A stretch of DNA of 64,000 nucleotides from the NCBI GenBank assembly GCA_051872765.1, contig JBJEED010000091.1, forward strand, positions 17,878-81,877. The letters are read 5' to 3'. Source of the stretch: Bacilli bacterium (GTDB taxonomy: Bacteria; Bacillota_I; Bacilli_A; RF39; UBA660). Under the pieces are notes generated by a model. That model was not told where the DNA came from. It saw only the letters and a program-made list of their open reading frames with translations, and made no database searches. Positions 4,279 to 57,709 of the stretch are shown here, piece after piece. The position numbers and the translations under genes are program-made. The first letter of the stretch is position 1, and each line of letters begins with the position of its first letter.

Positions 4279-5397
4279 ATGAAATTAATAATTGAAAAAA
4301 ATATTTTAATGGAAGGATTAAATGCAGTAAGTAGAGCTTTATCTACAAGAAATATAATACCTGTATTAAATTGTATCAAATTTGATTTACAAAATAATGG
4401 ATTATATTTAACAGCAACAGATAATGATATAACAATTCAATATTATATTGATAAAAAAGATATAAAAAGTATTGAAGAAACAGGATGTTCTATTATTTAT
4501 GGAAAAACATTATTAGAGGTTATTAGAAAATTACCTGAAACAGATATTTTAATAGAAAATTTTGAAAATAACGAAGTATCTTTTAAAACAAATAATTCTA
4601 TATATAATTTTAATTGTTATATGGTTGAAGATTATCCAAACATTTCTTTAGAAGAAGGAAAAAATCCGATAAGTATATCAAGTAATAAATTTAAGGAAAT
4701 AATTAATAAAACAACATTTGCTTGTTCATTACAAGAAAGTAACCCTGTATTAACAGGTGTAAATGTAAAAATTCAAGGAGATTTATTTGAATGTATTGCT
4801 ACAGACTCATATAGAATTTCAAAGATTAATCTAAAATTAGATGAAATGTATATTGAAAATATAAATATCGTGATTCCAGCAAAAAATATAAATGAATTTG
4901 CAAAAATTATAAATTCTGATTCAAAAATGGAAATACATGTATTTAGTAATAAAGTTATATTTAAGTTAGATAATATTATTTTTCAATCATCATTATTGAA
5001 TGGAAATTATCCACAACTTGAAAATATTTTTCCAAATGAGTTTGAATATAAAATAAAAGTAAATTTAAAAGATTTCTACAATACTTTAGATAGGGCATCA
5101 TTATTAACTGGATCTAGTAAAAAATATATTATAGATGCAGAAATTAAAGATAATTATTTGAAATTAAAAGCATCAAGTGCAGAAATGGGTAAAGTAGAAG
5201 AAAAAATTAGTATAGAAAATTTAACTAATAATAATATATACATATCATTTAGTTCAAAATATGTGCTTGAATCATTGAAGATGTTTAGTAGTGAAGATAT
5301 ATATATATTATTAAATAGTGGTGTAAAACCATTTGTGTTAAAAGAAGTTGATAATGATAATTTTATTCAACTTGTATTTCCTATTCAAACTAATTAG
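4279..5397 (+). CDS. dnaN: DNA polymerase III beta sliding clamp
   Basis: 372 aa, beta-clamp three-domain pattern, directly after dnaA. Confidence 0.95.
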   Translation: MKLIIEKNILMEGLNAVSRALSTRNIIPVLNCIKFDLQNNGLYLTATDNDITIQYYIDKKDIKSIEETGCSIIYGKTLLEVIRKLPETDILIENFENNEVSFKTNNSIYNFNCYMVEDYPNISLEEGKNPISISSNKFKEIINKTTFACSLQESNPVLTGVNVKIQGDLFECIATDSYRISKINLKLDEMYIENINIVIPAKNINEFAKIINSDSKMEIHVFSNKVIFKLDNIIFQSSLLNGNYPQLENIFPNEFEYKIKVNLKDFYNTLDRASLLTGSSKKYIIDAEIKDNYLKLKASSAEMGKVEEKISIENLTNNNIYISFSSKYVLESLKMFSSEDIYILLNSGVKPFVLKEVDNDNFIQLVFPIQTN

Positions 5398-5505
5398 TAA
5401 TCATTTAGTAATATTTAAAAGAAAATGTAATAGTTTATTTAAAATAATTAATAAATTATTACATTTTTTATTGTGTAAAACAAATATATTGGAAAATTTT
5501 TCCTT

Positions 5506-5532
5506 TTCGACAAAAAATGACAAAATTCGACA
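5506..5532. promoter_or_regulatory. Two Spo0A-box matches (TTCGACA, which is TGTCGAA on the other strand) 20 bp apart
   Basis: Exact 7-mers at 5506-5512 and 5526-5532, about 50-80 bp upstream of the comK-like start. CG-containing 7-mers are rare in this AT-rich genome. Confidence 0.4.
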
Positions 5533-5584
5533 AACGTAATATGTTAGTATAGCAATCAATTTTAAAGAAAGGGGGTATTATACA

Positions 5585-6046
5585 ATGAAATATGAAATCA
5601 ACTCAGATACTCAAGTAATCTTACCAATTAGTAAAGAGTGTACAAAGGTCATAGAACAGGGAGACGAATATATATTAAATATAGCTTGTCATGAAATATT
5701 AGAACATAGTTGTGAATATTTTGGTAGTTCATATGAAGGTAGAAAAGAAGGAACAAAGAAAATTTTAGGTATTACACATAAGGCTCCAATAATAATTGAA
5801 GAAAGTAGACAAATAATATTTTTTCCAACAACTTCACCAGATAATATTAACTGCGTATGGATTAATTTAGAAAAAATTGAAAAGTATTTTAAAACAGATA
5901 CTAGAAAATCAGCAATTATTTTTAAAGACGGAACAACATTAGAATTTAATATATCTTATGGATCTTTAACAAATCAAATAATGAGAGCAACAAGATTAAA
6001 ATATGTTTTAAATGAAAGATTAATAAAAAAAGAAGATAATAAATAA
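5585..6046 (+). CDS. comK: ComK-family competence transcription factor homolog
   Basis: 153 aa; CEYFGSSYEGRKEGT...ITHKAPIII...QIIFFPT...ISYGSL aligns block by block with B. subtilis ComK (CRFFGSSYAGRKAGT...ISHKPPIMV...QIFLFPT...ISYNSF). Confidence 0.8.
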   Translation: MKYEINSDTQVILPISKECTKVIEQGDEYILNIACHEILEHSCEYFGSSYEGRKEGTKKILGITHKAPIIIEESRQIIFFPTTSPDNINCVWINLEKIEKYFKTDTRKSAIIFKDGTTLEFNISYGSLTNQIMRATRLKYVLNERLIKKEDNK

Positions 6047-6149
6047 AATTATCTTTTTTTATAAGGAAATTTGTGGTATAATCTTATTAGTGAGTAGGAG
6101 TACTATTTAAATAAAAAATTCAAAAATTGGGGGTTAAAGAGGTTTAAAA

Positions 6150-7229
6150 ATGAATATTACAAAAATTGAACTAAATAATTTTAGAAATTACAAGAAAAAA
6201 ATTTTTGATAATTTTTCAAATTTAAATATTATTATTGGTAAAAATGGTATAGGTAAAACATCTATACTTGAAGCAATTTATTTAGGTAGTTTAGCTAAGT
6301 CTTTTAAAACTACATCTGAATTGTCCATAATTAAAACAGGAACAGATTATTTTAGAATAAAAATATATTATTTTGATGATGGACAAAAAAAGAATTTAGA
6401 GTTGTATTTAGATAAAAATGGCAAAAAATCAAAAATAAATTCAAAATTACAAAATAAATTAAGTTCTTTTATTTCTCAATATAGAATAATTTTACTTTCT
6501 CCAGATGAATTAAAATTAATTAAATCATCACCTAATATTAGAAGAAATTATTTAAATATACAAATATCACAGTTACATAAAGAATATCTTTATTATTTAA
6601 ATAATTATAACGTGCTTATTAAAAATAAAAACGATTATTTGAAAAAACTATTAACTAATAGTACATTAGATACAAGATATTTAGATATATTAGATAAAAA
6701 AATAGTAGAAGAGGGAATAAAAATATATAATTATAGAAAAAAATATATAGATTCTATAAATAAATATATTAATTCAATTTTTAAAAACTATGTAAAAAAT
6801 AATGAAATTGAATTAAATTACATATCTGACTATGAAATAAATGATAAAGATAAATTATTAAAAGAACTTAAAAGAAATAGAAGAAAAGAGATTAATATTG
6901 GTATGACTTCTTTTGGTATTCATAGGGATAATTTTGAATTTATGCATAATGGAAATAATTCTAAAGAATATAGTTCTCAAGGATTACAAAAATTAATAGT
7001 TTTAGCTATGAAATTGTCTGAAATAAAAATATTTATGGATGATTATCAAATAACTCCTATTTTATTACTTGATGATTTATTTAGTGAACTTGATGAAAAA
7101 AATAGAAATAATATTTTTAAATCATTAAATAAAGATATACAAATATTTATAACAACTACAGATTTAAAAAATATTAATAAAAATATTATAAAAAAAGCCA
7201 AAATATATGATTTAAATGAGAGGGTGTGA
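6150..7229 (+). CDS. recF: DNA replication and repair protein RecF
   Basis: N-terminal Walker [18 protein letters not shown]-like ABC ATPase, C-terminal D-loop [11 protein letters not shown]. Position dnaN-recF-gyrB. Confidence 0.9.
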
Positions 7230-7233
7230 TATT

Positions 7234-9153
7234 ATGAATGAAGAATATGGCGTAAAAGATATACAAGTTTTAGAAGGATTAGAGGCAGTAAGAAAAAGAC
7301 CTGGTATGTATATAGGAACTACTGATGTAAAAGGGTTACATCATTTAGTCTGGGAAATTGTAGATAATTCTATTGATGAGGCCTTAGCAGGTTATTGTAA
7401 TAATATTGAAATAGTAATAAATAAAGATAATTCTATAACAGTAAAAGATAATGGTCGTGGTATTCCAGTTGGTATACATCCTCAAACCGGTATTTCTACA
7501 GTAGAAACAGTTTATACAGTGCTACATGCTGGTGGAAAATTTGGCGGTGGAGGATATAAAGTATCTGGTGGACTTCATGGTGTTGGTGCATCTGTTGTTA
7601 ATGCATTATCAAAATGGGTAACTGTAACAGTATATAAGGATAGTAAAATATATGAAACAAAATTTGAGAATGGTGGAAAAACTGTTCAAAAATTAACAGA
7701 GATTGGTGAATGCGAAAAAAATAGAACTGGAACAATAGTAACATTTAAGCCAGATGCAGATATATTTGATACTGATATTTATGATTATGAAACATTAAAA
7801 ACTAGAACAAGAGAATTAGCTTTTTTAAATAAAGGATTAAGACTTACATTAAGAGATGACAGAGATGAAGAAGATACACAAGGTGATATTTTCCTATATG
7901 AAGGTGGAATAAGTGAATATGTAAAATTTATTAATCAAGGAAAAACTGTTCTTCATGATAACGTAATACATTTAGAAGGAGAAAAAGATGGAATTCTGTT
8001 TGAGGTAGCACTTCAATATAATTCTGGGTATAATGAAAATATTTATTCTTTTGTAAATAACATTAATACTCATGATGGAGGAACTCATGAAGACGGAGTT
8101 AAAAGAGCTTTAGTAAGAGTAATAAATTCATATGCAAGAAAAAATAATATATTAAAAGATAAAGACGAAAATTTAAGAGAAGATGATGTTAAAGAAGGAA
8201 TTACTATGATAGTTTCTTGTAAACATCCAAACCCTCAATTTGAAGGTCAAACAAAAGGTAGACTAGGTAATTCAGAAGTTAAGAATCTTGCAGATAGTGT
8301 TTTTGCAGAAGGATTTGAACAATTTTTACTAGAAAATCCAGAAAATGCTAAAATTATTATAAATAAAGCTATATTAGCTAGAAATGCTAGAATGGCTGCT
8401 AAAAAAGCAAGAGAAGCTACAAGAAAAAGTGATCTTACTACAACAAATTTTTTTGGTAAATTATCTGATTGTAAAAGTAAAGATCCAACAGTATCTGAAA
8501 TATTTATTGTCGAGGGAGATTCTGCCGGTGGTTCAGCAAAAAAAGGTAGAGATTCAATGACACAAGCAATATTACCTTTAAGAGGTAAAATATTAAATGT
8601 TGAAAAAGCGAGACTTGATAGAGCACTTGGGAATGAAGAAATTAAAACTATTATAACCGCGTTTGGAACAGGAATTGGTGAATATTTTGATTTAAGTAAA
8701 CTAAGATATGACAAAATAATAATTATGACCGATGCTGATGTTGATGGTGCTCACATTAGAGTATTATTATTAACATTATTTTATAGATTTTTTAAACCTA
8801 TAGTACAAGCAGGACATATTTATGCCGCTCAACCACCATTATTTAGAATTATGCATGGTAAGACAAGAAAATATGCACTAGATGAAAAAGAAAAAGATGA
8901 ATATTTAGCTTCATTACCTGAAAATGTTAGAGCTAGGGCTGAAATTGCACGTATGAAAGGTTTAGGTGAAATGGATGCTGAAGAATTAAATGAGACTACA
9001 ATGGATATTAATAAAAGAGTTTTACGTAAAATAACAGTGGATGATTGTGTATTAGCTGACTCAATATTTGAAAAATTAATGGGCGATGAAGTAGAACCAA
9101 GACGTGCATTTATAGAAGAAAACGCAGAATTTGTTAAAAATTTAGATATATAG
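7234..9153 (+). CDS. gyrB: DNA gyrase subunit B
   Basis: GHKL ATPase, [25 protein letters not shown]; start at ATG 7234. Confidence 0.97.
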
Positions 9154-25527: not shown

Positions 25528-27423
25528 GTGGTTTATGTGATAGACTCATATTTTGCAAGTATTGGATTTACATTAAGTGGTTTATTATTTATGCTTACAG
25601 TATTTGTAATGTTTGTATCAAAAAAGAAAGAAAATAATGAAGAAAGTCGAATATTTTTTTATCTATTAATAATTACAATATTACTATTATTTTTAGAGTT
25701 TGCAACTAGTTATACAATTTCCAAAATAGATGAGTTAACATTATTAAATACTATTTTAGGCAGATTATATATCGTTCTTATATATCTTTGGGCAGGAGGA
25801 TTTTTATTATATATTACAACCTTACTACTTAATAATGAAGAAAAATATAAAAATAAAAATAAGAAAAAGTTTTTTACTATTTATATAATCGTATCTATTA
25901 TTGTAGCAATTCTTATGTCTATTATATTTAAAGTAGAGTATTCTAATGGTATGAATGGAACACCTTATGTTATAGGTGGAACAGCTATCACTATATTAAA
26001 TATATTAATTATTTTTGGAGGATTTTTATTAATAACAATTTTATCAAGTTATAAAAATATTATAAAGAATATTTGGATGACTCCTATTTATATAATAATA
26101 TTGGCTTTTATATTGATTACTTTACTTCAAACATTCTTTAATTATCAAATAAATGATACAGTATTATTTTTCTCGCTAATAATTGAAACTTTATATTTTA
26201 CAATTGAAAGTCAAGATAATAAATTATTAGAAGAATATAAAAAATCAAAAGAAGATGCAGAAATAGCTAATAAAGCAAAAACAGAGTTTTTGATTAATAT
26301 GTCACATGAAATCAGAACCCCAATGAATACAATTTTAGGATTTAGTGAATCTTTATTAAAAGATCCTGTACTTGTTGAAGAGACAGTTAAGAATGATTTA
26401 AAAAGTATTAATTCTGCAAGTTCAACTTTAATGGACTTAATTAACAATATATTAGATATATCAAGACTTGAAGCTGGTGAAGAAGTATTAAATGATTCTG
26501 AGTATAATTTAGAGACATTAATATTTGAAATTAATAGTTTAATTCCAGCAAAGATAGAAAAAGAAGAATTAAAATTTACTATTGAAATTAATGAAAGTAT
26601 ACCTAAAGGTTATTATGGTGATGCTTACAAATTAATTAAGATTTTATGCTATGTATTAAGAAATGCAATTGATTATACCAATTATGGAGAAATTAAACTT
26701 AATGTTGATGGTAAAAAAGTAGATGCACAAAACTTTGAATTTTGTTTCTTAGTTTCAAATACAGGTCATGCAATGACTCAAGAAAGTTTCAATATGGATT
26801 TTGCGGATTATGTAAAAATTGAAAATGCATCACAAAAAAATAATGTAAAAACTATTAATCTTGGGTTAATTATAGCAAAACAATTAACTGAGTTAATGGG
26901 CGGTGAAATTGAATTTGTTAATGAAAGAGGACATGGAACTAGATACTTTATTAGAATAAAGCAAAAAATAACTAATGAAGAAAAAATAGGAAATATATTT
27001 GAAAGTAATGCTGGACATGTTTCTAGTAGTAGAGATATATTAAATTGTGAAGGTAAGAAAGTTTTAATAGTTGATGATAGTGAAATAAATTTAAAACTAG
27101 CATCAAGGTATATGAGTCAATTTAATTTTACTGTTACTACTGCGACAAATGGAAAAGATTGTGTTGAATATATTAAAAATAATAATTATGATATAGTATT
27201 TATAGATCATATGATGCCAGATATGGATGGTGTTCAAACTGTTAAAGCTATGGAAGCAACTGGTAAAAAATTGCCACCAATAATTGCTCTAACAGCAAAT
27301 GGATATAAAGGTCTAAAAGAAAGATTTGTTTCAGAAGGTTTCACAGATTATCTTCAAAAACCACTTAATTTTAGAGATTTAAATAAATTAATCAATAGAA
27401 TATTTGGTCAAAATGGTAATTAG
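25528..27423 (+). CDS. Orphan hybrid sensor histidine kinase (polytopic N-term, HisKA, HATPase_c, C-terminal receiver)
   Basis: H-box [16 protein letters not shown]-box GLGLIIAKQ, receiver [12 protein letters not shown]...[14 protein letters not shown]. Confidence 0.8.
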
Positions 27424-27441
27424 GAAGGGAGTGAAATTAAG

Positions 27442-29283
27442 ATGACATTTGAATTAATATTAACTGAAGGTACAGTTGCATTTATACTATTATTATTAAT
27501 GATGTATTTTAAAAAACAAACCTTCAAAAACTTAAAGACATTTATGTTTAAATTATTATTAATATTTAGTTTATCCTTTTCTGCTTTTGAAATAATATCT
27601 GTATTATTGTTAGATGTAATAGATTCTAATTTAATAAATACTATTATATGGAAATTTCACTTTGTGATTAGCATGTTATTTAATTTAGTATTCTGCTATT
27701 ACATATTAAGTGCTTTATCTGAAGAAGAGAAAAAATCTTTTAAAGAACTTTTTACAGCTAGTTTAATATCTAAAATTGTATCTGTAATAATATTTATTAT
27801 CATAATAGGATATATTGTTTTGCCAATAGATAATATAAATCCAGAAACATTAAATTTTATTCCAAACTATAGTATATATTTTTATATAGCATGTGTATTA
27901 ATCGCATTAATTGTAACAATGATTACTTTGTCAAAAACAAAGAAAAAGATTTCTAAAAATAAAAAGCCTTATTATATTTATGCTACTATTATTCCTTTAG
28001 TTTTTATACCATTGCAAATAATATTTACTCAGGTTTCATTTTTACCTTTTGCATTAATATTACAATTATATGATTTATATTTCTTCATTGAAAATCCAGA
28101 TTTAGAAATCTTAGAAGAAATAACAACAGCACAAGGAGATATTGAACAATCTAATCAAACAAAAACAGATTTCTTATCTAATATGACATCTGAAATAAAA
28201 GTTCCAATGAATCTAATTGTTAGTTTATGTGATGAATTGACTAGTATGCCAGTATTTAATGAGAAACTTGTTAGAGAAGATATTTCACAAATATATACAT
28301 CAGGTAATAGTTTATTAGACATAGTAAATAATATATTAGATATATCTAAAATTGAAACAGGTAAAGGAACGCTTCAAGAAAGAGATTATAAAGTTAATAA
28401 TTTGTTAACTGATGTAATTAATATTGCTAAATCAAAAATTGGTGCTAAACAAGTAAAATTAATGGTCAATGTTGATCAAAATATATCATCTGTATTAAAT
28501 GGTGACTATTCTAAACTTTATCAGGCTTTGACAAATATAGTCACAAATGCTGCTAAATTCACGGATGTTGGTAAAATTACTTTTACATTAACTAGTACAA
28601 AAGCATCAAATGTCGAGAATCTATTATTTAAAATCAGTGATACTGGTTCAGGTATTAAAGAAGAAGAACAGGCAATGTTATTTCAAAAAGGTGTTAGACT
28701 TGCAAATGCTAAGCAAAGTGAGATTGAAGGTAGTGGTTTAGGACTAGCTATAACAAAAGAATATATTGAACTTTTGGGTGGTAAAATATGGTTTGATAGT
28801 CAATACAGAGTTGGTACTACTTTTTATATTGAAGTTCCACAAAAAATAGTTGATTCAACACCAGTAGGTGCAGCAAAAGAGAAAAAACAAACTACTGAAA
28901 AGCTTGATTGTTCTAAGTATACAGTGCTTATTGTAGATGATAATAACTTAAATATTAAAGTTGCAAAAAGACTTCTTGAAACTTACAAGTTTAAAGTTGA
29001 AAGTGTTACTTCTGGTAAAGATTGTGTTTATAAAATAAAGGAAGGAACACATTACGATGCAATATTCATGGATCATATGATGCCTGAGATGGATGGTATT
29101 GAAACATTACATGTACTTAAGAAATTAAATGGTTATGAATTACCTCCTATTATTGCATTAACTGCAAATGCAGTTGCAGGTATGAGAGAAATGTATCTAA
29201 GTGAAGGGTTTGATGAATATTTATCAAAACCAATAAATACTACTGACTTAGATAGAATAATTAATGAATTATTTAACAAATAA
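27442..29283 (+). CDS. Second orphan hybrid sensor histidine kinase, paralogous to the upstream gene
   Basis: Same architecture; receiver VLIVDDNNLNIKVA...AIFMDHMMPEMDG. Confidence 0.8.
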   Translation: MTFELILTEGTVAFILLLLMMYFKKQTFKNLKTFMFKLLLIFSLSFSAFEIISVLLLDVIDSNLINTIIWKFHFVISMLFNLVFCYYILSALSEEEKKSFKELFTASLISKIVSVIIFIIIIGYIVLPIDNINPETLNFIPNYSIYFYIACVLIALIVTMITLSKTKKKISKNKKPYYIYATIIPLVFIPLQIIFTQVSFLPFALILQLYDLYFFIENPDLEILEEITTAQGDIEQSNQTKTDFLSNMTSEIKVPMNLIVSLCDELTSMPVFNEKLVREDISQIYTSGNSLLDIVNNILDISKIETGKGTLQERDYKVNNLLTDVINIAKSKIGAKQVKLMVNVDQNISSVLNGDYSKLYQALTNIVTNAAKFTDVGKITFTLTSTKASNVENLLFKISDTGSGIKEEEQAMLFQKGVRLANAKQSEIEGSGLGLAITKEYIELLGGKIWFDSQYRVGTTFYIEVPQKIVDSTPVGAAKEKKQTTEKLDCSKYTVLIVDDNNLNIKVAKRLLETYKFKVESVTSGKDCVYKIKEGTHYDAIFMDHMMPEMDGIETLHVLKKLNGYELPPIIALTANAVAGMREMYLSEGFDEYLSKPINTTDLDRIINELFNK

Positions 29284-30180: not shown

Positions 30181-30396
30181 TTGAATATTGAACAAATAAA
30201 AAATAAGTTAAAAAATTTTGGTAAATCTAAAATTAAAATAAAAGTAAATCTAGGTCGTAATAAGTATGAGTATTATGAGGGATATATAAATAAGATGCAT
30301 CCTAATATTTTTGTTGTTGAAACTAATAAAGGAATAAAATCTTTTTCTTATTCTGATGTAGTTATTAAAAATGTAATATTAACTAAATTTAATTAA
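30181..30396 (+). CDS. veg: Veg (biofilm-stimulating small protein), TTG start
   Basis: 71 aa; NLGRNKYEYYEGYINKMHPNIFVVE...FSYSDVV matches the Veg consensus. Confidence 0.85.
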   Translation: MNIEQIKNKLKNFGKSKIKIKVNLGRNKYEYYEGYINKMHPNIFVVETNKGIKSFSYSDVVIKNVILTKFN

Positions 30397-30668
30397 AATC
30401 AGTTTAAGATATTATTTACTTTATATATAAATATAATGTATTAATATTTGTATGCTTAGAAATAAAACTTAAAATAATAGTAAAACTAATTAGTAATTGT
30501 TGTTAATAATCTTATAATTATTTTTATATTGTCTTTGATTAATAAGATAAAAAATGCTTAAACTTCAATATTTAAATCGTTGACTGCTGATATATTATGA
30601 TGTATAATTTATGTATAGTAGTCTATATTTATAAGTTATTATAAATTTAAATAGAAAGGATCGAAGAA

Positions 30669-31232
30669 ATGAAAAAGCAAAGAAACACACAAATGCTGGT
30701 TATTGCAGTCTTAGCAATTGCGGTATTGACAATGTCAGTAGGTTTTGCGGCATTTACTCAAAGATTAGATATTAATAGTAATACTACAGTTGGTGTGTCA
30801 ACTTGGAATGTTAAATTTTTAACTGATAGTTTCACAGTAACTGATGGAAGCGTTAATGTAGATAGTGGTAACATAGTAATTACAGGTACATCTGTCACAT
30901 ATGAGGTTAAGTTATCTAAGCCTGGAGATTTTTATGAATTTACTATTAATGTTAAAAATTCAGGTACATTTAATGCTAACTTAGTTGGAATTACTTTAAG
31001 TTCTTTAACTGAGGCACAATCTAAATATTTAACTCACAAATTAACATATGATGGTGTAGAGTATACTCAAACAACATCTGGATTATCAAAAACATTAAAT
31101 GCAACTGATGGTGTTGCTAGTGTTAAAGTTCGTGTGGAATATGTTGCACCAGAAGATCCAAATGATTTACCACAGGAAGAAGTTCGTATACCTTTAACTG
31201 CATCTCTTTCATATGAACAAAAACCTGATTAG
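30669..31232 (+). CDS. TasA/camelysin-like secreted protein with SipW-cognate signal peptide
   Basis: N-terminus ...LTMSVGFAAFTQ matches the SipW-cognate class (TasA ...GGGTWAAFND); KLSKPGDFYEFTINVKNSG parallels TasA NLKPGD...FQFENNGS. A TTGACT-17-TATAAT promoter lies at about 30580-30608. Confidence 0.6.
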   Translation: MKKQRNTQMLVIAVLAIAVLTMSVGFAAFTQRLDINSNTTVGVSTWNVKFLTDSFTVTDGSVNVDSGNIVITGTSVTYEVKLSKPGDFYEFTINVKNSGTFNANLVGITLSSLTEAQSKYLTHKLTYDGVEYTQTTSGLSKTLNATDGVASVKVRVEYVAPEDPNDLPQEEVRIPLTASLSYEQKPD

Positions 31233-31286
31233 AATAATTTATAAAAATTATGTTTGTTAAATTGATAAATAACAAATATATAATTA

Positions 31287-32414
31287 GTGGGTAAAAATAT
31301 GAAAAAAAATATATTGACATTTTATATATGTAATATAATAATTATAGCCTTAATTGTATTATTTAATAATAAGAATTATAGTATTCTATTATGGATTTTA
31401 TTAACTATCTTTTTATTTTTTAAGTGTGGTTTTCCTAAAGATAAAAATTATTTAAAATATAATACAATTCAAATTGTAATAATTAGTATATTCTCATATT
31501 TTTTAATTACTTATAGTCTTGGTTTAATTACGGGATTTAGTAAAAATTTTTTTGATTTAAATATTAAATCGATTATTATGAATATGCTATATCCTTTTAC
31601 TTTGATTACTTGTCAAGAACTTATTCGATATATTTATGCTAAAAATTGTGTAGATGATATAAAGCCATATATTATGCTTACTTTAGTATATATTTTTTTA
31701 GAAATTTTTACTCAAGTTAATGGATATAATTTTTACAATTTTGAAATATTGTTTAAGTTTATATGTTTAGTAGTATTAAAAAGTATTTCTCATGAAATTC
31801 TATATAGTTATATTACTTATAAGATTAGTTTTATACCTACATTAATTATGAAACTAACATTTGGTTTATATATATACATTATACCTATATTTCCAAATTT
31901 AGGAGAATATTTAATGTCTCTTTTTGGAATATTATATCCGGCTTTGGTTTATGTAATGATATATAAAACTATTCAATCTTATGATAAAAGTAGTAAATAT
32001 GTGACTTCAATAAAGAAAAAATATTTGCTATATCCTGTAATTTTATTTTTATGCATAATTGCAGTACTTACATCAGGTATTGGAAAATATCAAATGATTG
32101 CAATTGGATCTGGTAGTATGGAACCAATATATAAGCGTGGTGATGCGGTAATCTTTACTAAGATAAAATCACTTGAAGAAGTGAAAATTGGTTCCATTAT
32201 AGCATTTACTAAAAATAATATACTAATAACACACAGAGTGGTAAATATTGAATATAAAAATGGTGATTATCAATTTATCACAAAAGGGGATAATAATAAA
32301 GATATTGACATTGGAACTGTTAGTGGCAGTAATGTTAAAGGAATTGTGATACATAAGATTCCTTATATTGGATATCCAACAATATGGATTAATGAAAAAC
32401 TAGGTAATATATAA
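31287..32414 (+). CDS. sipW: SipW-type (ER/archaeal-type) signal peptidase I fused to an approximately 250-aa N-terminal polytopic membrane domain
   Basis: C-terminal catalytic domain has IGSGSMEP (catalytic Ser), ITHRV (His) and KGDNN. The N-terminal half has about 7 predicted TM helices. Confidence 0.7.
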   Translation: MGKNMKKNILTFYICNIIIIALIVLFNNKNYSILLWILLTIFLFFKCGFPKDKNYLKYNTIQIVIISIFSYFLITYSLGLITGFSKNFFDLNIKSIIMNMLYPFTLITCQELIRYIYAKNCVDDIKPYIMLTLVYIFLEIFTQVNGYNFYNFEILFKFICLVVLKSISHEILYSYITYKISFIPTLIMKLTFGLYIYIIPIFPNLGEYLMSLFGILYPALVYVMIYKTIQSYDKSSKYVTSIKKKYLLYPVILFLCIIAVLTSGIGKYQMIAIGSGSMEPIYKRGDAVIFTKIKSLEEVKIGSIIAFTKNNILITHRVVNIEYKNGDYQFITKGDNNKDIDIGTVSGSNVKGIVIHKIPYIGYPTIWINEKLGNI

Positions 32415-32436
32415 AAAGAATAAGTGTGGTGATAAT

Positions 32437-33522
32437 ATGAAAAATGATGATAATTCTTTGTTTATGAGAAAAATTTATTATTTACTCATTGTTTTTTCAA
32501 TTATCATTTTAAGTATATGCTCTTATTTTTATATAAGAATGGGATTAGATAATAAGGTAAAAAATGTTTTAGATTACGAAAGTAGTAGTGATATAAATTA
32601 TAAAGTATATTTAAAGAAAAATAACTTTTTTAATGAAGAATATTTAACTATGAATAAAACTTATATTGCAAGTTTAATTGATCATTTAGATGTTATTTTT
32701 ACATATAATCTTAAATATAGTGAACTTGTATCTGGAAAGTATAATTATTATGTAAAAGCTACTATTTTAGCTGATAAAGATGCATCTAGTAATACAAATT
32801 ATTGGTCTAAATCTTATATTTTAACAGAACCAGAAACTATTGAATTTAGTAAAATTAATAATTATAATATCACCACTAGCGTAATAGTTGATTATCAGAA
32901 ATATAGTGATTTGCTTAAAGAATTTAGAAAAGAATATGGATTATCTATCACTGGTTTATTAAAATTAGAACTTATTGTTGAAAGTGAGACAAAAAGTGAG
33001 TCTATTGAAAATGTTGCTAATATAAATTCTTCTTCTGAATTAACTATTCCTCTTACTGAGCAAGCAATTGAATTATCTATTAATGCTGAAAATGATAGTA
33101 ATTCTGGAAGCATAGTAGAAGAGGTTGTATTAGATAATATTAAATATAAAATATTTTTAGTGCTTGGTACTATTTTAGGAATTTTAGCAATCATATTACT
33201 TGGAATATTTATTTACGAATTAATAATGTTATATCAAAGTAAAAGTAAATATTCGATAGAACTTAAAAAAATAATGTCTTCATATGATAGTATAATTGTA
33301 AATGTTAGTAGTATGCCTAATTTTACTAAATATAAAGTTATTAACGTACTTTCATTTGATGAGTTAATTGATGCTCATAGTGAAGTAAGAATGCCAATTA
33401 ATTATTATGAAGAGAAGCCTGGATGTAAAAGTGTTTTTGTACTTATTAATGGTGATATTGTCTGGATGTATACATTGTTAGATGAAAATTATAGAAAAAG
33501 AATTTTAAAAAAGAAGTCATAA
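32437..33522 (+). CDS. Hypothetical bitopic membrane protein in the matrix operon
   Basis: TM at the N-terminus and near residue 235; no family recognised. Confidence 0.45.
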   Translation: MKNDDNSLFMRKIYYLLIVFSIIILSICSYFYIRMGLDNKVKNVLDYESSSDINYKVYLKKNNFFNEEYLTMNKTYIASLIDHLDVIFTYNLKYSELVSGKYNYYVKATILADKDASSNTNYWSKSYILTEPETIEFSKINNYNITTSVIVDYQKYSDLLKEFRKEYGLSITGLLKLELIVESETKSESIENVANINSSSELTIPLTEQAIELSINAENDSNSGSIVEEVVLDNIKYKIFLVLGTILGILAIILLGIFIYELIMLYQSKSKYSIELKKIMSSYDSIIVNVSSMPNFTKYKVINVLSFDELIDAHSEVRMPINYYEEKPGCKSVFVLINGDIVWMYTLLDENYRKRILKKKS

Positions 33523-33560
33523 TTATTTATAATATAATAGAAAAGGAAAAGGAAAATCAA

Positions 33561-35900
33561 ATGTTAAAAAATCGAAATGTTATTATATATATATTTGTTT
33601 TACTAATTATTTCTTTTATGAGTGTAGGGTATGCATACTATGGACAATTGCTAGAGTTTTCTGGAAATATTAATTTAAAGCCAGATGGTAAATTTCGTAT
33701 AGATAATATAATACTTACGGATACTTCTAATGTTATAAGTAGTGTTCCACCAATTATTACAGATAATACAATTGAGTTTAATATAAGCTTTGGTGGTACT
33801 GAAAATGAGTATTATGCAATATATACAGCTGACTTCATAAATGAAAGTAGCTATAGTTATACATATAATTCTTTTAATTTTACGCCAATTGTTACCGCGA
33901 GTGGTGATGGAAGTGGACAATTATCTTTTGAAGTTAGTAATATTAATGATGGAGATGTAATTTCTCCTGGAGAGATTTTAACGATTACGTTAAAATTGAT
34001 TTTAGATGTAAGTGATTCTGAACAAACATATGATATAAATGCCAAGAGTGATGTTATATTGAATTATAATGAAAAAGGTTCTATTTTTACTAGTGTATCA
34101 CCATTATCTGTAGATTTAACTGGTACTAATGAATTAGCTTTAATTAATTTAGAGGTTATGAACACATATGGTAGAAATATTACTTTTAATATGAAATCTA
34201 GTAATAATAATTTTTCTTTAGTAAATAGTGATGGAACAGATTTAGGAAGTTTTACTATTTTAGCAAATAGTGTAGATGATTATCAAATATATTTGAAAAA
34301 GACAGATAATAGCGTGTTTTATGATTCTTCTGAGACTACAATATTAATATTACAATGTGGTACTTTAGGAAACTATAATACTAGTAAGATAACAGTTTCT
34401 GTTGATAAGTCAGAGTTAAGTGATACTAGTATTCCTGAAATTGGTGAAATTAGTTTTACTATAAATAATAATGAAGGACAGGCTGATCTTAATTGGAGTA
34501 GATTAGATAGTGGGGGCACTAGTATTATTGGTTATACAATATTACTTTATAATTCTACGAATGATACCTTAGTAAATACTTATAATACTAATAGTGACTT
34601 GACAAGTTATAGTATTACAGGTCTTGAAGAAGGAAGTTATTATGTTAAAATATATGGAACAGATCAAGCTGGAAATAATGGAAGTGGATATGTAAATGAT
34701 GCTACAACTAGTACAATTTATTGTCGTCAATCTTCTACTGTTGCTTTAAAATGGATATTTAATGTTACTAATAATTTAACTTATTTGACTTCTTCAGGTG
34801 CTAGTACTGCTTCATTAGGAAGTACATATACTGCAACATTATCGGTTTCAGGAAATGTAAGTTTGCCAACTTCTATTACAGTTACTATGAATGGTGTTAC
34901 ACTAGTAAATGGTACAGATTATACATATAGTAGTAGTACAGGACAAATATCTATTCCTAATGTAAATGGAGATATTACCATTACAGCTAGAGGAAGTGGC
35001 GTATGTTTAATTGAAGGAACAAAGATTAGTTTAGCTGATGGAAGTACTAAAAACATTGAAAATATAAGATATGATGATTTACTTCTTGTTTGGAGTTATG
35101 AAGAGGGGCGTATGGTATATGAATATCCTATTTGGATAGAAAAAGAACATAAAGCGCAATCTTATCAATTAACAAAATTCTCATCAGGAGATGAGTTAAA
35201 AACAATAGGATATCATGGCATATATAATATGGACCTTAATAGATTTGTTTCAGTTGATAATAGAGAAGAATTTGATGTTGGTACTAATGTTGCTATTATG
35301 AATGATGATAAAACAGGTTTTATATCTACTAGTGTAGTTAGTATAGAATATGTGTATGAAGAAGTAAATTATTATCATGTGGTTTCAACTAGATATTATA
35401 ATATAATTGCTAATAATATTTTAACAACTGATGGAACAGTAATATTATCTAATTTATATGGATTTGATGATAACATTATGTGGTTAAATAGAAATCAAGT
35501 AATTAATGATAAAAATAATCTTTATGATTATATAGAATTTAATGATATAATGCCATATTATATGTTTTCTGGCCTTAGAGCTAGTGAAGGTAAGTATTTA
35601 GCTAATTTAGGTTTTTTGAGTAAAGAAACATTTAAATATTATTTACTTCAAAATCAAATGAATAAAGAAATGTTGTTACCGCCAACTGTAAATAAAAATG
35701 GTATAAGACAATGGGTTGTAAAAACAAGTTTAGGATATGAAAGATTAATAGATGAGGGAAGTTATTTTTATTTAGATAATTCAAATACTTTAGGTAAAAA
35801 GATTTTATATTGGTATGATATGTCTACAGGAGTAAAATACAAACCTAATGAAAGAGTTAAAATATGGTATGGTACTTATTTTGAGGCTATATATGAATAA
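33561..35900 (+). CDS. Large secreted protein: SipW-cognate signal/TasA-like N-terminus, Fn3 domain, internal Hint (intein-like) domain
   Basis: N-terminus ...FMSVGYAYYGQ...NLKPDG; Fn3-like LNWSRLDSGGTSIIGYTILLYN...YYVKIYGTD; Hint block A CLIEGTKISLADGSTKNIENI...DLLLV at residue 482 and block F-like YYNIIANNILTTDG (about nt 35004-35435). Confidence 0.6.
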   Translation: MLKNRNVIIYIFVLLIISFMSVGYAYYGQLLEFSGNINLKPDGKFRIDNIILTDTSNVISSVPPIITDNTIEFNISFGGTENEYYAIYTADFINESSYSYTYNSFNFTPIVTASGDGSGQLSFEVSNINDGDVISPGEILTITLKLILDVSDSEQTYDINAKSDVILNYNEKGSIFTSVSPLSVDLTGTNELALINLEVMNTYGRNITFNMKSSNNNFSLVNSDGTDLGSFTILANSVDDYQIYLKKTDNSVFYDSSETTILILQCGTLGNYNTSKITVSVDKSELSDTSIPEIGEISFTINNNEGQADLNWSRLDSGGTSIIGYTILLYNSTNDTLVNTYNTNSDLTSYSITGLEEGSYYVKIYGTDQAGNNGSGYVNDATTSTIYCRQSSTVALKWIFNVTNNLTYLTSSGASTASLGSTYTATLSVSGNVSLPTSITVTMNGVTLVNGTDYTYSSSTGQISIPNVNGDITITARGSGVCLIEGTKISLADGSTKNIENIRYDDLLLVWSYEEGRMVYEYPIWIEKEHKAQSYQLTKFSSGDELKTIGYHGIYNMDLNRFVSVDNREEFDVGTNVAIMNDDKTGFISTSVVSIEYVYEEVNYYHVVSTRYYNIIANNILTTDGTVILSNLYGFDDNIMWLNRNQVINDKNNLYDYIEFNDIMPYYMFSGLRASEGKYLANLGFLSKETFKYYLLQNQMNKEMLLPPTVNKNGIRQWVVKTSLGYERLIDEGSYFYLDNSNTLGKKILYWYDMSTGVKYKPNERVKIWYGTYFEAIYE

Positions 35901-36034
35901 AAAGAGTATAAAAGTATTATATTCTATTGTGATTTAATCTAATAAAAAGTCTTATATTAATTAAATTTAATTAAAAATATTGATATTGAAAAATATTTGT
36001 ATTATAATTAATATAGCAAATTAAGGAGGTACTT

Positions 36035-36313
36035 ATGAAAATTACATCAGTAAAAATTCGTAAAGTTGAGAGAGAAGGATCTCGTATGAAAGGTATTGCT
36101 TCTGTAGTAGTTGATGATGCAATTGCTATTCATGATATTAGAATTATTGAAGGCGATAATGGATTATTTATTGCTATGCCTAGTCGTAAAACACCAGTAG
36201 GTGAATATAAGGATATAGCTCATCCAATTAACCAAGAAGTAAGAACTATGTTTGAAAAAGAAATACTTGATGCATATAACAAATCAGACGAAGTTCAAGA
36301 AAACGAGGAATAA
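36035..36313 (+). CDS. spoVG: Septation protein SpoVG
   Basis: MKITSVKIRKVEREGSRMKGIASVVVDDAIAIHDIRIIEG is canonical SpoVG. Confidence 0.92.
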   Translation: MKITSVKIRKVEREGSRMKGIASVVVDDAIAIHDIRIIEGDNGLFIAMPSRKTPVGEYKDIAHPINQEVRTMFEKEILDAYNKSDEVQENEE

Positions 36314-55946: not shown

Positions 55947-56144
55947 TTGGGGGTATTAAACTCTATGGTTAAATACAAAGTTAATTTGAAATTTAAAGAA
56001 AATGGAAAATCTTTAAATGAAACAATAACTAATGTATTAAAAATTGAACTAGAAAAAAGAACAAATACGACTTGTAATATTTTAAAAAAGGAGTTACCAT
56101 TCAAGCATACTCATTATTCCCAAATGGAAGGGAGTAGGAATTGA
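55947..56144 (+). CDS. Small ORF immediately upstream of, and overlapping, the recombinase start; possible ribbon-helix-helix-like or recombination directionality factor
   Basis: KYKVNLKF...SLNETITNVLKIELEKR has a beta-strand then helix pattern; speculative. Confidence 0.2.
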   Translation: MGVLNSMVKYKVNLKFKENGKSLNETITNVLKIELEKRTNTTCNILKKELPFKHTHYSQMEGSRN

Positions 56145-57709
56145 TGATAGGGAATAGTAGTTTTAAAGCAGGAATATATATAAGATTATCAAGAGATGAT
56201 GGAAATATTGAATCTGATAGTATTGTTAGTCAAAGAAGTTTACTTAATCAGTATGTTAAAGAAAATAACTACAATATAATAGATGAATATGTTGATGATG
56301 GATTTACTGGAACTAATTTTGAAAGACCATCATTTAAAAGAATGATTAGTGACATTGAAATTGGCAAAATTAATATGATTATTACTAAAGATATGTCTAG
56401 ATTAGGTAGAGATTATATAGGTACAGGAGAACTCATTGAAAAGTATTTTCCAAATAAAAATGTTAGGTATATTGCTATTAACGATGGTATTGATACATTT
56501 ATAGATAATACAAATAATGATATAGCACCTTTTAAAGCTATAATGAATGATATGTATGCTAAAGATATTTCTAAAAAAGTTAAAACAAGTTTGCATTCTA
56601 GAATGAAAGAAGGATTGTATGTATCTGGTAGATGCCCATTTGGTTATATGAAAGATCCAAATAATAAAAATCATTTAGTCATAAATGAAGAACAAGCAGA
56701 AGTAGTTAAATTAATATTTGATTTGGCGCTTAAAGGTAATACTTACCACTATATTGCTCAAGAATTAACTAAAAGAAAAATTAAAACACCAGCATCCTAT
56801 TATAACTATGTTTGGAATACTAAGTGTATAAATACAAATTGTATTTCACAAGAATATGGTGTATGGGTTGATACAACAATTAAATCAATTTTAACTAATA
56901 GAATTTATGTAGGTGATGTAGTGCAAGGTAAAACTAAAAAGATTAATTATAAACTTAAAAAGACGGTTAAAAATAATCCAAATGATTACATTGTAGTTGA
57001 AAATATACATGAACCAATAATTGATAGAGATACATTTAATTATGTTCAAACTTTATTACCTAAAAATGTTAAAAGACCAGAAAAGAAACGATTTTATTTA
57101 TTAGATGGACTTTTATATTGCGGAGATTGTAAACATCGTATAACTATTAGATATCAAACTAAAACTGACAGAAGTTATACAACTTGTGATTATTATAGAA
57201 CATATTCAAAATATCATGTTTGTACAACTCATACAAATAATTATGAAGTATTAGAAAGTGTAATTTTAGAAAACATAAAAGAAATATGTAAAAGGTATTT
57301 AGATAAAAATAAAATAAAAGATTCTATTGGCAATATAAAATTTGAAGATAATACTTTAAAAATAAAAAAACAAATAGAAAGTTTAGAAATAGCTAATAAT
57401 AAATTAATAGAAAGTCTAGATAAGACTTATATGGATAGGTTAAAAGGAATTATTGATGAGGAACAATACATAAGAATAAGTGAAAATCTAAAACAAGAAA
57501 TAGCTAATAATAAATTAAGTATTGATAGTCTTAAAAATGAACAAATAAATGAAAATAAAGTAGATAATAAACAAATAGAAAAATATATAAATGAATTTTT
57601 ATCATTAGAAAATTCAACTAGAGAATTAATAATTAATTTAGTAGAAAAGATTTATATCTATCAAGATAAAACGATAGATATTATATTTACATTTAAAAAT
57701 GTTACATAA
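56141..57709 (+). CDS. Large serine recombinase (resolvase/invertase catalytic domain, recombinase domain, zinc-ribbon domain, coiled-coil)
   Basis: N-terminus GIYIRLSRDD...SIVSQRSLL (catalytic Ser), ...DDGFTGTNFERP...ITKDMSRLGRD; Cys cluster CGDC...C...C in the C-terminal half; 522 aa. Confidence 0.9.
   Translation: MMIGNSSFKAGIYIRLSRDDGNIESDSIVSQRSLLNQYVKENNYNIIDEYVDDGFTGTNFERPSFKRMISDIEIGKINMIITKDMSRLGRDYIGTGELIEKYFPNKNVRYIAINDGIDTFIDNTNNDIAPFKAIMNDMYAKDISKKVKTSLHSRMKEGLYVSGRCPFGYMKDPNNKNHLVINEEQAEVVKLIFDLALKGNTYHYIAQELTKRKIKTPASYYNYVWNTKCINTNCISQEYGVWVDTTIKSILTNRIYVGDVVQGKTKKINYKLKKTVKNNPNDYIVVENIHEPIIDRDTFNYVQTLLPKNVKRPEKKRFYLLDGLLYCGDCKHRITIRYQTKTDRSYTTCDYYRTYSKYHVCTTHTNNYEVLESVILENIKEICKRYLDKNKIKDSIGNIKFEDNTLKIKKQIESLEIANNKLIESLDKTYMDRLKGIIDEEQYIRISENLKQEIANNKLSIDSLKNEQINENKVDNKQIEKYINEFLSLENSTRELIINLVEKIYIYQDKTIDIIFTFKNVT

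Follow-up and report, generated by a model that had tools for sequence, protein, structure and literature searches.

A horizontally acquired cassette between veg and spoVG of a Bacilli bacterium, probably encoding a donor-strand surface fibre with a Hint-bearing subunit

The window analyzed here, a 64-kb stretch of about 24% G+C on contig JBJEED010000091.1 of a Bacilli bacterium, covers the part of the chromosome near the origin in a sporulating Firmicute (dnaA, dnaN, gyrBA and onward to ksgA, yabG, veg, spoVG, yabP, yabQ, divIC, tilS and ftsH), and between veg and spoVG it carries a block of four genes that we call A, B, C, and D. This block is an accessory, horizontally acquired insertion. 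The explanation that we favor, and consider probable, is that it is a 5.54-kb operon for a donor-strand surface fibre of the TasA superfamily, of the kind known from the AbpX and Tafi systems and not of the canonical TasA/SipW kind. Its most interesting features are a Hint (Hedgehog/intein) module on the product of gene D and, in a sister lineage, the presence of the cassette on a serine-recombinase element, both of which are absent from an earlier sequence-only reading of the same DNA.

In the scheme that we propose, the operon would be transcribed from its own conserved sigma-A-like promoter, and A, as the major subunit, and D, as a large minor subunit, would be exported by means of an unusual signal peptide that they share. 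The signal peptidase B, together with the DUF5305 protein C, would cut this signal after the motif G-[FY]-A, freeing an amphipathic strand at the N-terminus for insertion into the beta-sandwich of a neighboring subunit, and the fibre would polymerize in this manner. Because D begins with an A-like domain, it could join the fibre by that domain and display three Ig/FN3-like domains. D would moreover be a proprotein, in which the Hint domain makes an N-to-S acyl shift at the 481|Cys482 junction; the resulting thioester would be resolved by hydrolysis or by transfer, the Hint domain and the tail that follows it would be detached, and the mature D would equal the orthologues that are naturally short.

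The cassette is an insertion

The features of the locus are listed below in window coordinates.

30181-30396: veg (PF06257, 4.6e-15)
30364-30398, + strand: left copy of a flanking direct repeat, the genuine last 10 veg codons and stop (from a repeat search and alignment with relatives)
30399-35941, + strand: inserted 5.54-kb cassette, promoter region plus genes A-D (from synteny and comparison with the relative L089)
30580-30608, + strand: sigma-A-type promoter-like site TTGACT-17-TATAAT, 60 nt upstream of A and kept along with the cassette
30669-31232, + strand: gene A, 187 aa, putative major fibre subunit
31299-32414, + strand (GTG start at 31287 also possible): gene B, 371 or 375 aa, dedicated signal peptidase I
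32437-33522, + strand: gene C, 361 aa, DUF5305 protein, proposed accessory subunit of the peptidase
33561-35900, + strand: gene D, 779 aa, large multi-domain protein with the Hint module
35942-35976, + strand: right copy of the direct repeat, a decayed remnant of the end of veg
36035-36313: spoVG (PF04026, 8e-35)

All four genes are real, as shown by their numerous conserved homologues (125 for A, 452 for B, and 63 for D). The order A-B-C-D is repeated on unrelated contigs, and D is identical to the hypothetical protein ACI33S_06750. The sequence-only reading had described four co-directional genes with a sigma-A-type promoter site in front of them, and these are indeed present. The genes are separated by gaps of 22-66 nt, no terminator-like site was found on the + strand inside the block, and D lies 134 nt from spoVG. 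The promoter motif alone is no proof, as a window of 24% G+C holds 68 promoter-like matches, compared to 61 +/- 8 in shuffled sequence. A relative, L089, has a cassette in which the two hexamers and some 120 nt of surrounding sequence are close to identical to the window, although its proteins are only 76-80% identical to those of the window, and the DNA further upstream of the promoter in L089 is unrelated to the window. To judge from this conservation, the promoter is likely to be functional.

The relatives used for comparison are loci or contigs carrying homologues and are labeled L001-L124. For synteny, a YabG scan with one genome per species provided 80 loci from gut and rumen metagenome-assembled genomes (L006-L085; labeled Bacilli, Erysipelotrichaceae, Tenericutes, and Clostridium sp. 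CAG:628/710/762), which were compared by tblastn with the window proteins. The usual order in these relatives is yabG-veg-spoVG-yabP-(yabQ)-divIC-tilS-ftsH, and in all loci with both genes except L006, veg adjoins spoVG, mostly at a distance of about 70-150 bp; more than 70 related species have the two genes side by side in this way. The cassette lies between veg and spoVG in only this one of the 80 species, a near-identical relative with a YabG that is 94% identical to that of the window, while the next-closest relatives (58-62% identity in YabG, 81-84% in FtsH) have no cassette at the site. The sequence-only reading had called the operon an accessory insertion, to be regarded as core if it were conserved at this site in all relatives, and the synteny comparison upholds the first of these views.

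The boundaries of the insertion are marked by the 35-nt direct repeat derived from the end of veg, a repeat whose 23-nt core is present two times in the window, the expected number being 0.00. The right copy stands directly before the spoVG promoter (35980-36008), i.e., at the position that the end of veg occupies in relatives.

The cassette of L089 and L090 (A 76% and D 80% identical to the window) provides a view of how the block can move. The similarity between the window and L089 starts about 120 nt upstream of A and stops about 45 nt past the stop codon of D. In L089 and L090, a 42-aa open reading frame and the genes for two large serine recombinases (528 and 520 aa) come after the cassette. 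The whole block, about 9.4 kb long, splits yabG at around codon 85, and veg lies beyond the C-terminal part of yabG (L089 5136-15343). Since the cassette and the recombinases together split yabG, the cassette is the cargo of an integrative element in this sister lineage. The window copy has no recombinase with its cassette and its yabG is intact, so that the hallmarks of a serine-recombinase element are found in L089 and L090 and not in the window. Fibre systems of this sort move horizontally as the cargo of a small recombinase element.

Intervening elements are known from other sporulation genes, with skin in sigK and SPbeta in spsM. The block of L089 and L090 looks like an element of this type, as it ends in large serine recombinases and breaks yabG, a mother-cell sporulation gene. 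It differs from them in being only about 9.4 kb long, in having two recombinases, and in carrying a fibre operon as cargo instead of phage genes.

The putative subunit A and the A-like start of D

Gene A encodes a small protein with the following parts.

aa 1-27: signal peptide (…MSVGFA|AF…)
aa 28-47: extended amphipathic segment, putative donor strand
aa 48-184: beta-sandwich

The 125 matches to A form a family of unnamed proteins of about 185 aa with no Pfam domain, and their N-termini share the consensus M-[ST]-[VI]-G-[FY]-A-x-[FY]-x-x-x-L-x-I-x-G, with G25, A27, L33, and W46 invariant in the alignment. Mature A is acidic (pI 4.64), and if the signal is cut after GFA, as presumed, it begins with A-F-T-Q. 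The AlphaFold2 (AF2) model of A, with a mean predicted local distance difference test (pLDDT) score of 90, consists of a signal helix, an unstructured stretch at aa 28-47, and a beta-sandwich. When this model was compared to the PDB with Foldseek, the TasA fibre (8aur, E 3e-4) came first, followed by the Sulfolobus thread 7pnb and by the chaperone-usher pilins CfaB, FimG, and PapE, all of them subunits of donor-strand filaments. By analogy with such fibres, A would polymerize by donor-strand exchange.

D starts in much the same way as A. Its first 110 or so residues, comprising the signal, the strand, and the first beta-strands, are homologous to A by BLASTP (E 3e-6), and a profile comparison of the A family with D aa 1-185 by hhalign gave a probability of 98% with an E of 2e-13 over 106 columns. 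Both subunits have an aromatic residue at P2' (AF in A, YY in D), as does TasA, where, according to PMC10269814, the aromatic P2' residue calls for the dedicated peptidase SipW.

The sequence-only reading had taken A for a TasA/camelysin-like protein and had assigned SipW-cognate signal peptides to both A and D. Neither assignment holds at the level of sequence families. A had no match at E<=0.1 to the TasA/camelysin hidden Markov models (HMMs) PF12389 (Peptidase_M73), NF046066, and TIGR04090, with PF12389 touched by just one of 36 A relatives (E 0.016), and hhalign of the A family against a canonical TasA/camelysin member (L003 4422-5003) gave a probability of 2%. The SipW-cognate signal model TIGR04088 matched neither the A nor the D N-terminus even at E<=10, and as a control it matched the canonical L003 protein at 1e-7. 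Membership of A in the TasA/camelysin family is thereby ruled out by Pfam, NCBIfam, hhalign, and TIGR04088 alike, and A is TasA-like by its predicted fold only.

The peptidase B and the DUF5305 protein C

The C-terminal catalytic domain of B matches the ER/archaeal-type signal peptidase I model TIGR02228 (E 4.4e-26, 91.6 bits against a cut-off of 51.85), and the residues S277, H316, D335, and D341 are invariant in 26 of 26 sequences. Ahead of this domain lies an N-terminal domain of about 245 aa with approximately nine hydrophobic helices by hydropathy, which has no match in Pfam or NCBIfam and in which G79, G83, E111, R114, P200, P203, and Y208 are invariant. The combined architecture of about 375 aa is constant in the 452 homologues. 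The sequence-only reading of B as a SipW-class signal peptidase therefore stands in so far as the catalytic domain is of the ER/archaeal type, but B scores 66.7 bits against the cut-off of 190 of the SipW equivalog NF046067 and, at 371-375 aa, is roughly double the size of the SipW architecture of about 190 aa and has the additional polytopic domain.

Within the membrane domain (aa 1-245, 31287-32020), Glu111 and Arg114 stand in a weakly hydrophobic helix, and there is a P-x-x-P-x-x-G-x-Y motif. The domain may serve to dock substrates, as a platform for assembly, or in some other way. The E-E-x-x-R motif led us to consider a CPBP/Abi or exosortase relationship, which was rejected: Pfam and NCBIfam gave no match, the spacing is unlike that of the EExxxR motif, and no His is conserved.

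C matches PF17231 (DUF5305) with an E of 4.8e-17 (62.6 bits against a cut-off of 29) and has two hydrophobic segments (aa 13-31 and 239-257), so that its description as a bitopic membrane protein in the sequence-only reading is too plain. A DUF5305 gene is also present in the cassettes of L001, L003, L004, L086, L089, and L091. By analogy with published loci, C is proposed to be an accessory subunit of the peptidase. A role for DUF5305 as a signal-peptidase accessory has been put forward previously (PMC11821415, PMC12337348, bioRxiv 10.64898/2026.01.04.697558), and all mentions of DUF5305 in the literature searched concern donor-strand fibres.

D ends in a Hint domain and a conserved tail

The sequence-only reading had described D as a 779-aa multi-domain protein with a second SipW-cognate signal. 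The multi-domain nature is confirmed, the signal, as described above, is not matched by the SipW-cognate model, and the Hint domain had been overlooked. The parts of D are as follows.

33561-34070, + strand (aa 1-170): A-homologous region made up of a signal peptide (…MSVGYA|YY…), a donor-strand-like segment, and the first beta-sandwich
34083-34994, + strand (aa 175-478): three further beta-sandwich domains in the AF2 model, the middle one an FN3 domain (aa ~290-375)
35004-35435, + strand (aa 482-625): Hint domain with Cys482 at position 1 and His552 as the block-B His
35436-35897, + strand (aa 626-779): conserved tail, a helical part with P-x-Y-x-F-x-G-L-R and then a small beta domain

The AF2 model of D has a pLDDT of 86. 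The FN3 domain is matched by the FN3 domains of fibronectin and titin in a phmmer search against the PDB, and fn3 is found in 14 of 49 relatives. The top Foldseek match for D overall is the intein PhoCDC21 (E 3e-8). For the Hint domain, target-normalized template modeling (TM) scores are 0.77-0.81 with bacterial intein-like (BIL) domain BIL2 of Tetrahymena, 0.81 with the DnaB mini-intein, and 0.78 with the Hedgehog domain HhC (root-mean-square deviation 2.8). A profile of the Hint region searched against the PDB matches BIL2 with an E of 2e-10. Viral Hint proteins head the matches in BFVD. Most members of the D family touch Hint-family HMMs below threshold, and none of the curated Hint-family models reaches its cut-off for the window D. 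Cys482 is invariant in 49 of 49 sequences and His552 is at least 90% conserved.

The end of the Hint domain differs from that of an intein. The terminal His-Asn is absent from D, which rules out both an intein and an A-type BIL. Where BIL2 has its C-terminal Asn, the profile alignment places Asp624 of D, a position that is variable (D/E/S/L/F/C) across the module family. The near-invariant Asn631 was also considered as an intein-like terminal Asn and rejected, as in the structure-aware profile alignment the position in question falls seven residues before it, on Asp624. With no C-terminal Asn, only the N-terminal acyl shift would be available to D, as in Hog domains or B-type BILs. The presence of the N-terminal motifs and absence of the C-terminal ones fits the B-type BIL/Hog pattern, compared here by the definition of that class. 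The likeness to BIL and Hedgehog Hog domains extends to the Hint fold, the Cys at position 1, the block-B His, the occurrence in secreted variable proteins, and the (thio)ester chemistry expected at the N-terminus, while the differences, besides the lack of the terminal His-Asn, are that the tail of D is unrelated to the sterol-recognition region and that the host proteins are pilin-like.

Two orthologues of D, from L001 and L004, are naturally short. They are 521 and 530 aa long and end at or just before the Cys position (…SGGGCGG and …TTANNENN, each followed by the stop codon), and the next gene in both loci leaves no space for a longer D. Judging by their sequences, these short orthologues are the strongest indirect sign that the mature product of a long-form D would be the part before Cys482.

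For the tail (aa 626-779), neither a PDB sequence (at E<=10) nor a Pfam family was matched. Flg_new (the Listeria-Bacteroides repeat) was tried for the end of the tail and rejected, since it was touched in only 1 of 49 and 1 of 17 members and weakly so (E 0.004-0.01).

Several observations weigh against the account of the cassette given so far. For A, Foldseek gives low TM-scores (0.35), weak matches come from generic beta-sandwich HMMs as well, the profile comparison with canonical TasA was close to nil as described, and position 4 of its strand is Gln (Q/E/A in the family), which is not consistently acidic as it is in AbpX homologues. The link between A and AbpX is by analogy, drawn from the features of the locus and from the published description. 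For D, a Hint fold does not by itself prove activity, and block B of its Hint domain is without a strict T-x-x-H. Glu527, which we take to stand at position 46 of the Hint domain, counted against the Drosophila HhC sequence, is at least 90% conserved in the D family and variable in the wider module family, and this wider alignment weakens the idea that Glu527 is a universal analogue of the Hedgehog Asp46.

The Hint-plus-tail module occurs on other pilin-like and TasA-like proteins

A phmmer search with D aa 482-779 against 1.84 billion representative proteins retrieved 2576 matches at E<=1e-3, 121 of these at E<=1e-30. Among the matches listed, the module is C-terminal in every carrier that keeps its C-terminus, in proteins of up to 2470 aa. 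Of the 123 carriers with a recognizable junction among these same matches, 69 have a D-type signal, 12 a type IV prepilin-type signal (K-G-F-T-L-I-E-L), three the canonical TasA-type A-Y-F-[ST]-D, and two are lipoproteins, with the rest unclear or truncated. The lengths from the Cys to the end fall into two classes (about 205-230 aa and about 275-330 aa), both of which have the P-x-Y-x-F-x-G-L-R helix.

What is new here is a link between Hint autoprocessing chemistry and filament subunits. In the literature searched, there is no description of Hint or intein-like domains together with TasA or SipW, and co-mentions of "Hint domain" and "pilin" are not about filament subunits. The presence of the same C-terminal module in more than 2,500 representative proteins, including pilin-like proteins of several filament classes, points to a general step of maturation or attachment that is undescribed in that literature.

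Proteins ending in the same Hint subfamily with a short tail (35-42% identity) are also found on IMG/VR viral contigs (L092 5080-6552; L093-L124), where the module carriers adjoin large repeat-rich proteins for which PHROGs gave no function. A tblastn search found no match to the module in GenBank phages. With GenBank phages lacking a match and PHROGs uninformative, a phage origin of the module was set aside as a candidate, the IMG/VR matches notwithstanding.

Auto-cleaving C-terminal chaperone domains, of a different fold, are known from phage tail fibres and endosialidases. The Hint-plus-tail module could likewise serve fibrous proteins as an intramolecular chaperone or assembly domain, one that removes itself by plain hydrolysis of the thioester, which we regard as a possible though tentative alternative. 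The C-terminal position of the module on very different elongated proteins (among the matches listed), the relatives on viral contigs beside repeat-rich proteins, the viral Hint proteins and minor-tail/FN3 proteins that came out on top in a search of BFVD, and the short orthologues, which function without the module, all agree with such a role. Set against these are the silence of PHROGs on the viral neighbors, the missing GenBank phage match, and the fact that nothing points to a chaperone role as such.

A second idea is that the module is a device for covalent attachment, in which a nucleophile such as a peptidoglycan amine, a lipid, or another subunit attacks the Cys482 thioester and so fixes the C-terminus of mature D, in a Hedgehog- or BUBL-like manner and in place of a sortase/LPXTG or SLH anchor. 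The BUBL locus of Tetrahymena is known for its conjugation chemistry, and the closest solved sequence relative of the D Hint domain is the BIL domain of that locus. The module moreover stands where the large accessory protein of AbpX loci has its LPXTG or SLH anchor, it is followed by a conserved tail of 150 aa just as Hedgehog has its sterol-recognition region, Glu527 occupies the Asp46 position within the D family, and proteins of the type IV pilin-like and TasA-like kinds also end in the module. The short orthologues, however, are without any anchor, Glu527 varies in the wider family, the tail has no recognizable binding fold, and no nucleophile is indicated, leaving attachment rather unlikely in our estimate.

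Should the thioester truly be transferred, the module would represent a bacterial counterpart of Hedgehog lipidation and a potential tool for protein ligation. In its widest form, the idea would make the Hint-plus-tail module a hitherto unrecognized, sortase-independent ligation device of Gram-positive gut Bacilli, using a Hedgehog-like thioester to join filament subunits covalently, by their C-termini, to the cell wall, to a lipid, or to a further subunit, with hosts from at least three filament classes (A/D-type, canonical TasA-like, and type IV pilin-like), and traveling with the fibre operon on a small serine-recombinase element able to sit in yabG. We mention this as a speculation with rather low odds of being right.

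Comparison with known fibre systems

Of the systems described to date, the AbpX loci of archaea and Bacillota come closest to the cassette. They comprise a signal peptidase I (SPase I) that spans the membrane with ten helices, AbpX-like minor subunits, and a DUF5305 "SPase accessory"; bacterial AbpX loci also encode a large protein with an LPXTG or SLH anchor, for which strand complementation is the predicted way of entering the fibre, and histidine kinases are often nearby (bioRxiv 10.64898/2026.01.04.697558). The window cassette shares with them a small, acidic, secreted subunit whose N-terminus is an amphipathic strand with an aromatic second residue, a Bacillota host, a dedicated many-helix SPase I (about nine helices in B, compared by description) with a DUF5305 protein, and the general inventory of AbpX-like minor subunits, a large accessory protein, and kinases nearby. 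It differs in that A has no shown sequence link to AbpX or TasA and has Gln at position 4 instead of an acidic residue, and in that D ends in the Hint module instead of an LPXTG or SLH anchor. Neither Hint domains nor inteins are mentioned in the AbpX preprint (bioRxiv 10.64898/2026.01.04.697558).

The second comparison is to the haloarchaeal Tat (twin-arginine translocation) fimbriae, or Tafi (TafA/C/E, TafD, TafG). In Haloarcula, the DUF5305 protein TafG and the multi-helix peptidase TafD are encoded in one cluster, and deletion of TafD blocks TafA processing and fimbriae (PMC11821415), and deletion with complementation has established that the locus-encoded multi-helix peptidase is needed for the major subunit (PMC11821415, PMC12337348). 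The likeness lies in the proposed donor-strand fibre, the multi-helix signal peptidase in the locus, and the DUF5305 neighbor. In contrast, Tafi subunits use Tat and the peptidase domain of TafD is N-terminal, whereas the cassette has Sec-type signals with no twin arginine and the peptidase domain of B is C-terminal.

TasA-like donor-strand fibres are emerging as a cross-domain way to build biofilm matrices, and the bacterial branch resembling AbpX and Tafi is so far known from bioinformatics only. The locus described here offers a compact, self-contained four-gene example from uncultured low-G+C gut and rumen Bacilli.

The third comparison is to the tapA-sipW-tasA operon of Bacillus subtilis, and with it comes the reading from which this analysis started, i.e., that the cassette is a canonical TasA/SipW biofilm-matrix operon in which A is a camelysin/TasA protein with a SipW-cognate signal and B is SipW. 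In the Bacillus system, according to PMC9674648 and PMC10151520, the fibre forms by N-terminal strand donation and an accessory subunit starts or anchors it. Both loci have a dedicated ER-type signal peptidase and the aromatic P2' residue, and the canonical reading is further favored by the TasA fibre being the top structural match of A, by the catalytic domain of B being of the SipW/archaeal type, and by the placement of a small secreted protein beside a dedicated peptidase, which is the TasA layout. However, A was negative in the TasA HMM, profile, and signal-model tests and D in the last of these, B is below the SipW cut-off and twice the size of SipW with its additional 245-aa domain, there is no TapA, and DUF5305 is present. 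DUF5305 is not known to be part of the Bacillus tapA-sipW-tasA operon.

The relative L003 also speaks against the canonical reading, as about 2 kb upstream of its A-B-C-D cassette (4422-7827) it also encodes a canonical Peptidase_M73 (TasA-like) protein together with a signal peptidase of 157 aa and an Flg_new protein of 771 aa; with both present on one contig, the canonical and A-B-C-D systems coexist and are not redundant copies. On these grounds we consider a canonical TasA/SipW operon improbable. The suggestion of the sequence-only reading that the block encodes a fibre or matrix system does remain the best interpretation of a locus with a dedicated signal peptidase, but in the AbpX/Tafi form that fits better than the TasA/SipW family.

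Yet another arrangement is seen in L016, where three or four small proteins with …ISFAAY, VSFAMY, or ISFAVF… signals and a 212-aa SipW-type peptidase are encoded upstream of ksgA-yabG (4346-8600), and similar signal-peptidase matches lie 1-8 kb upstream of yabG in about 30 relatives. This type of cluster constitutes a third kind of peptidase-dependent pilin-like locus in the clade and is absent from the window.

Genomic neighborhoods of the cassette and other insertions

The cassettes of the remaining relatives have a variety of neighbors: a gene for a GH25 protein and lgt in L001 and L002, lgt also following the cassette of L004, a sigma-70 gene and a tRNA-editing gene in L003, and a CDP-alcohol phosphatidyltransferase gene and recA on either side in L091. 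The cassette of L086 contains four tandem A paralogues.

These neighborhoods bear on whether the cassette could encode spore-surface appendages and not a vegetative fibre, as its position among sporulation genes (yabG, spoVG, yabP, and yabQ), the L089 element inside yabG, and a BclA_C protein nearby in L086 might suggest. The conserved promoter has sigma-A-type -35 and -10 hexamers, the cassette elsewhere lies by recA, a GH25 gene, lgt, or a sigma-70 gene, and its position is explained by integration and not by function, all of which makes a spore appendage very improbable. Hint domains also precede the toxin tips of polymorphic toxin systems, and a pretoxin-type Hint in D that frees aa 626-779 as a C-terminal toxin would agree with the weak touching of PT-HINT (PF07591) by 2 of 30 members (1.3e-3), but we rejected this identity as the least probable of all, given that the tail is conserved and not polymorphic and has no toxin-family match, that the Asn for C-terminal release is missing, and that what follows is a housekeeping or recombinase gene (spoVG, tRNA_edit, recA, or a recombinase) and no small immunity-like gene.

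Apart from the cassette, smaller insertions are evident at the same place in other relatives. The gap between veg and spoVG (or between yabG and spoVG where veg was unmatched) measures 0.8-1.6 kb in L026, L035, L037, L058, and L059, and the gap between spoVG and yabP is about 1.7 kb in L027 and L064, which suggests a recurrent insertion hotspot around veg and spoVG.

Some 20 kb downstream of the cassette, at 56144-57709 of the window, a large serine recombinase of 521 aa is encoded, which shares 37% identity with the first of the two L089 recombinases and is probably the sign of a further integrated element.

Upstream of the cassette, two tandem hybrid sensor histidine kinases of 631 and 613 aa are encoded between ksgA and yabG (25528-29283). 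In 53 of 72 relatives, less than 200 bp separates these two flanking genes, and the two kinases are confined to the lineage of the window, i.e., to the window and L006. Being restricted in this manner, the kinase pair represents a second lineage-specific insertion, 1.4 kb from the cassette, and it may regulate the cassette. L004 likewise has a hybrid kinase, 31-33% identical to these, at 2 kb from its own cassette.

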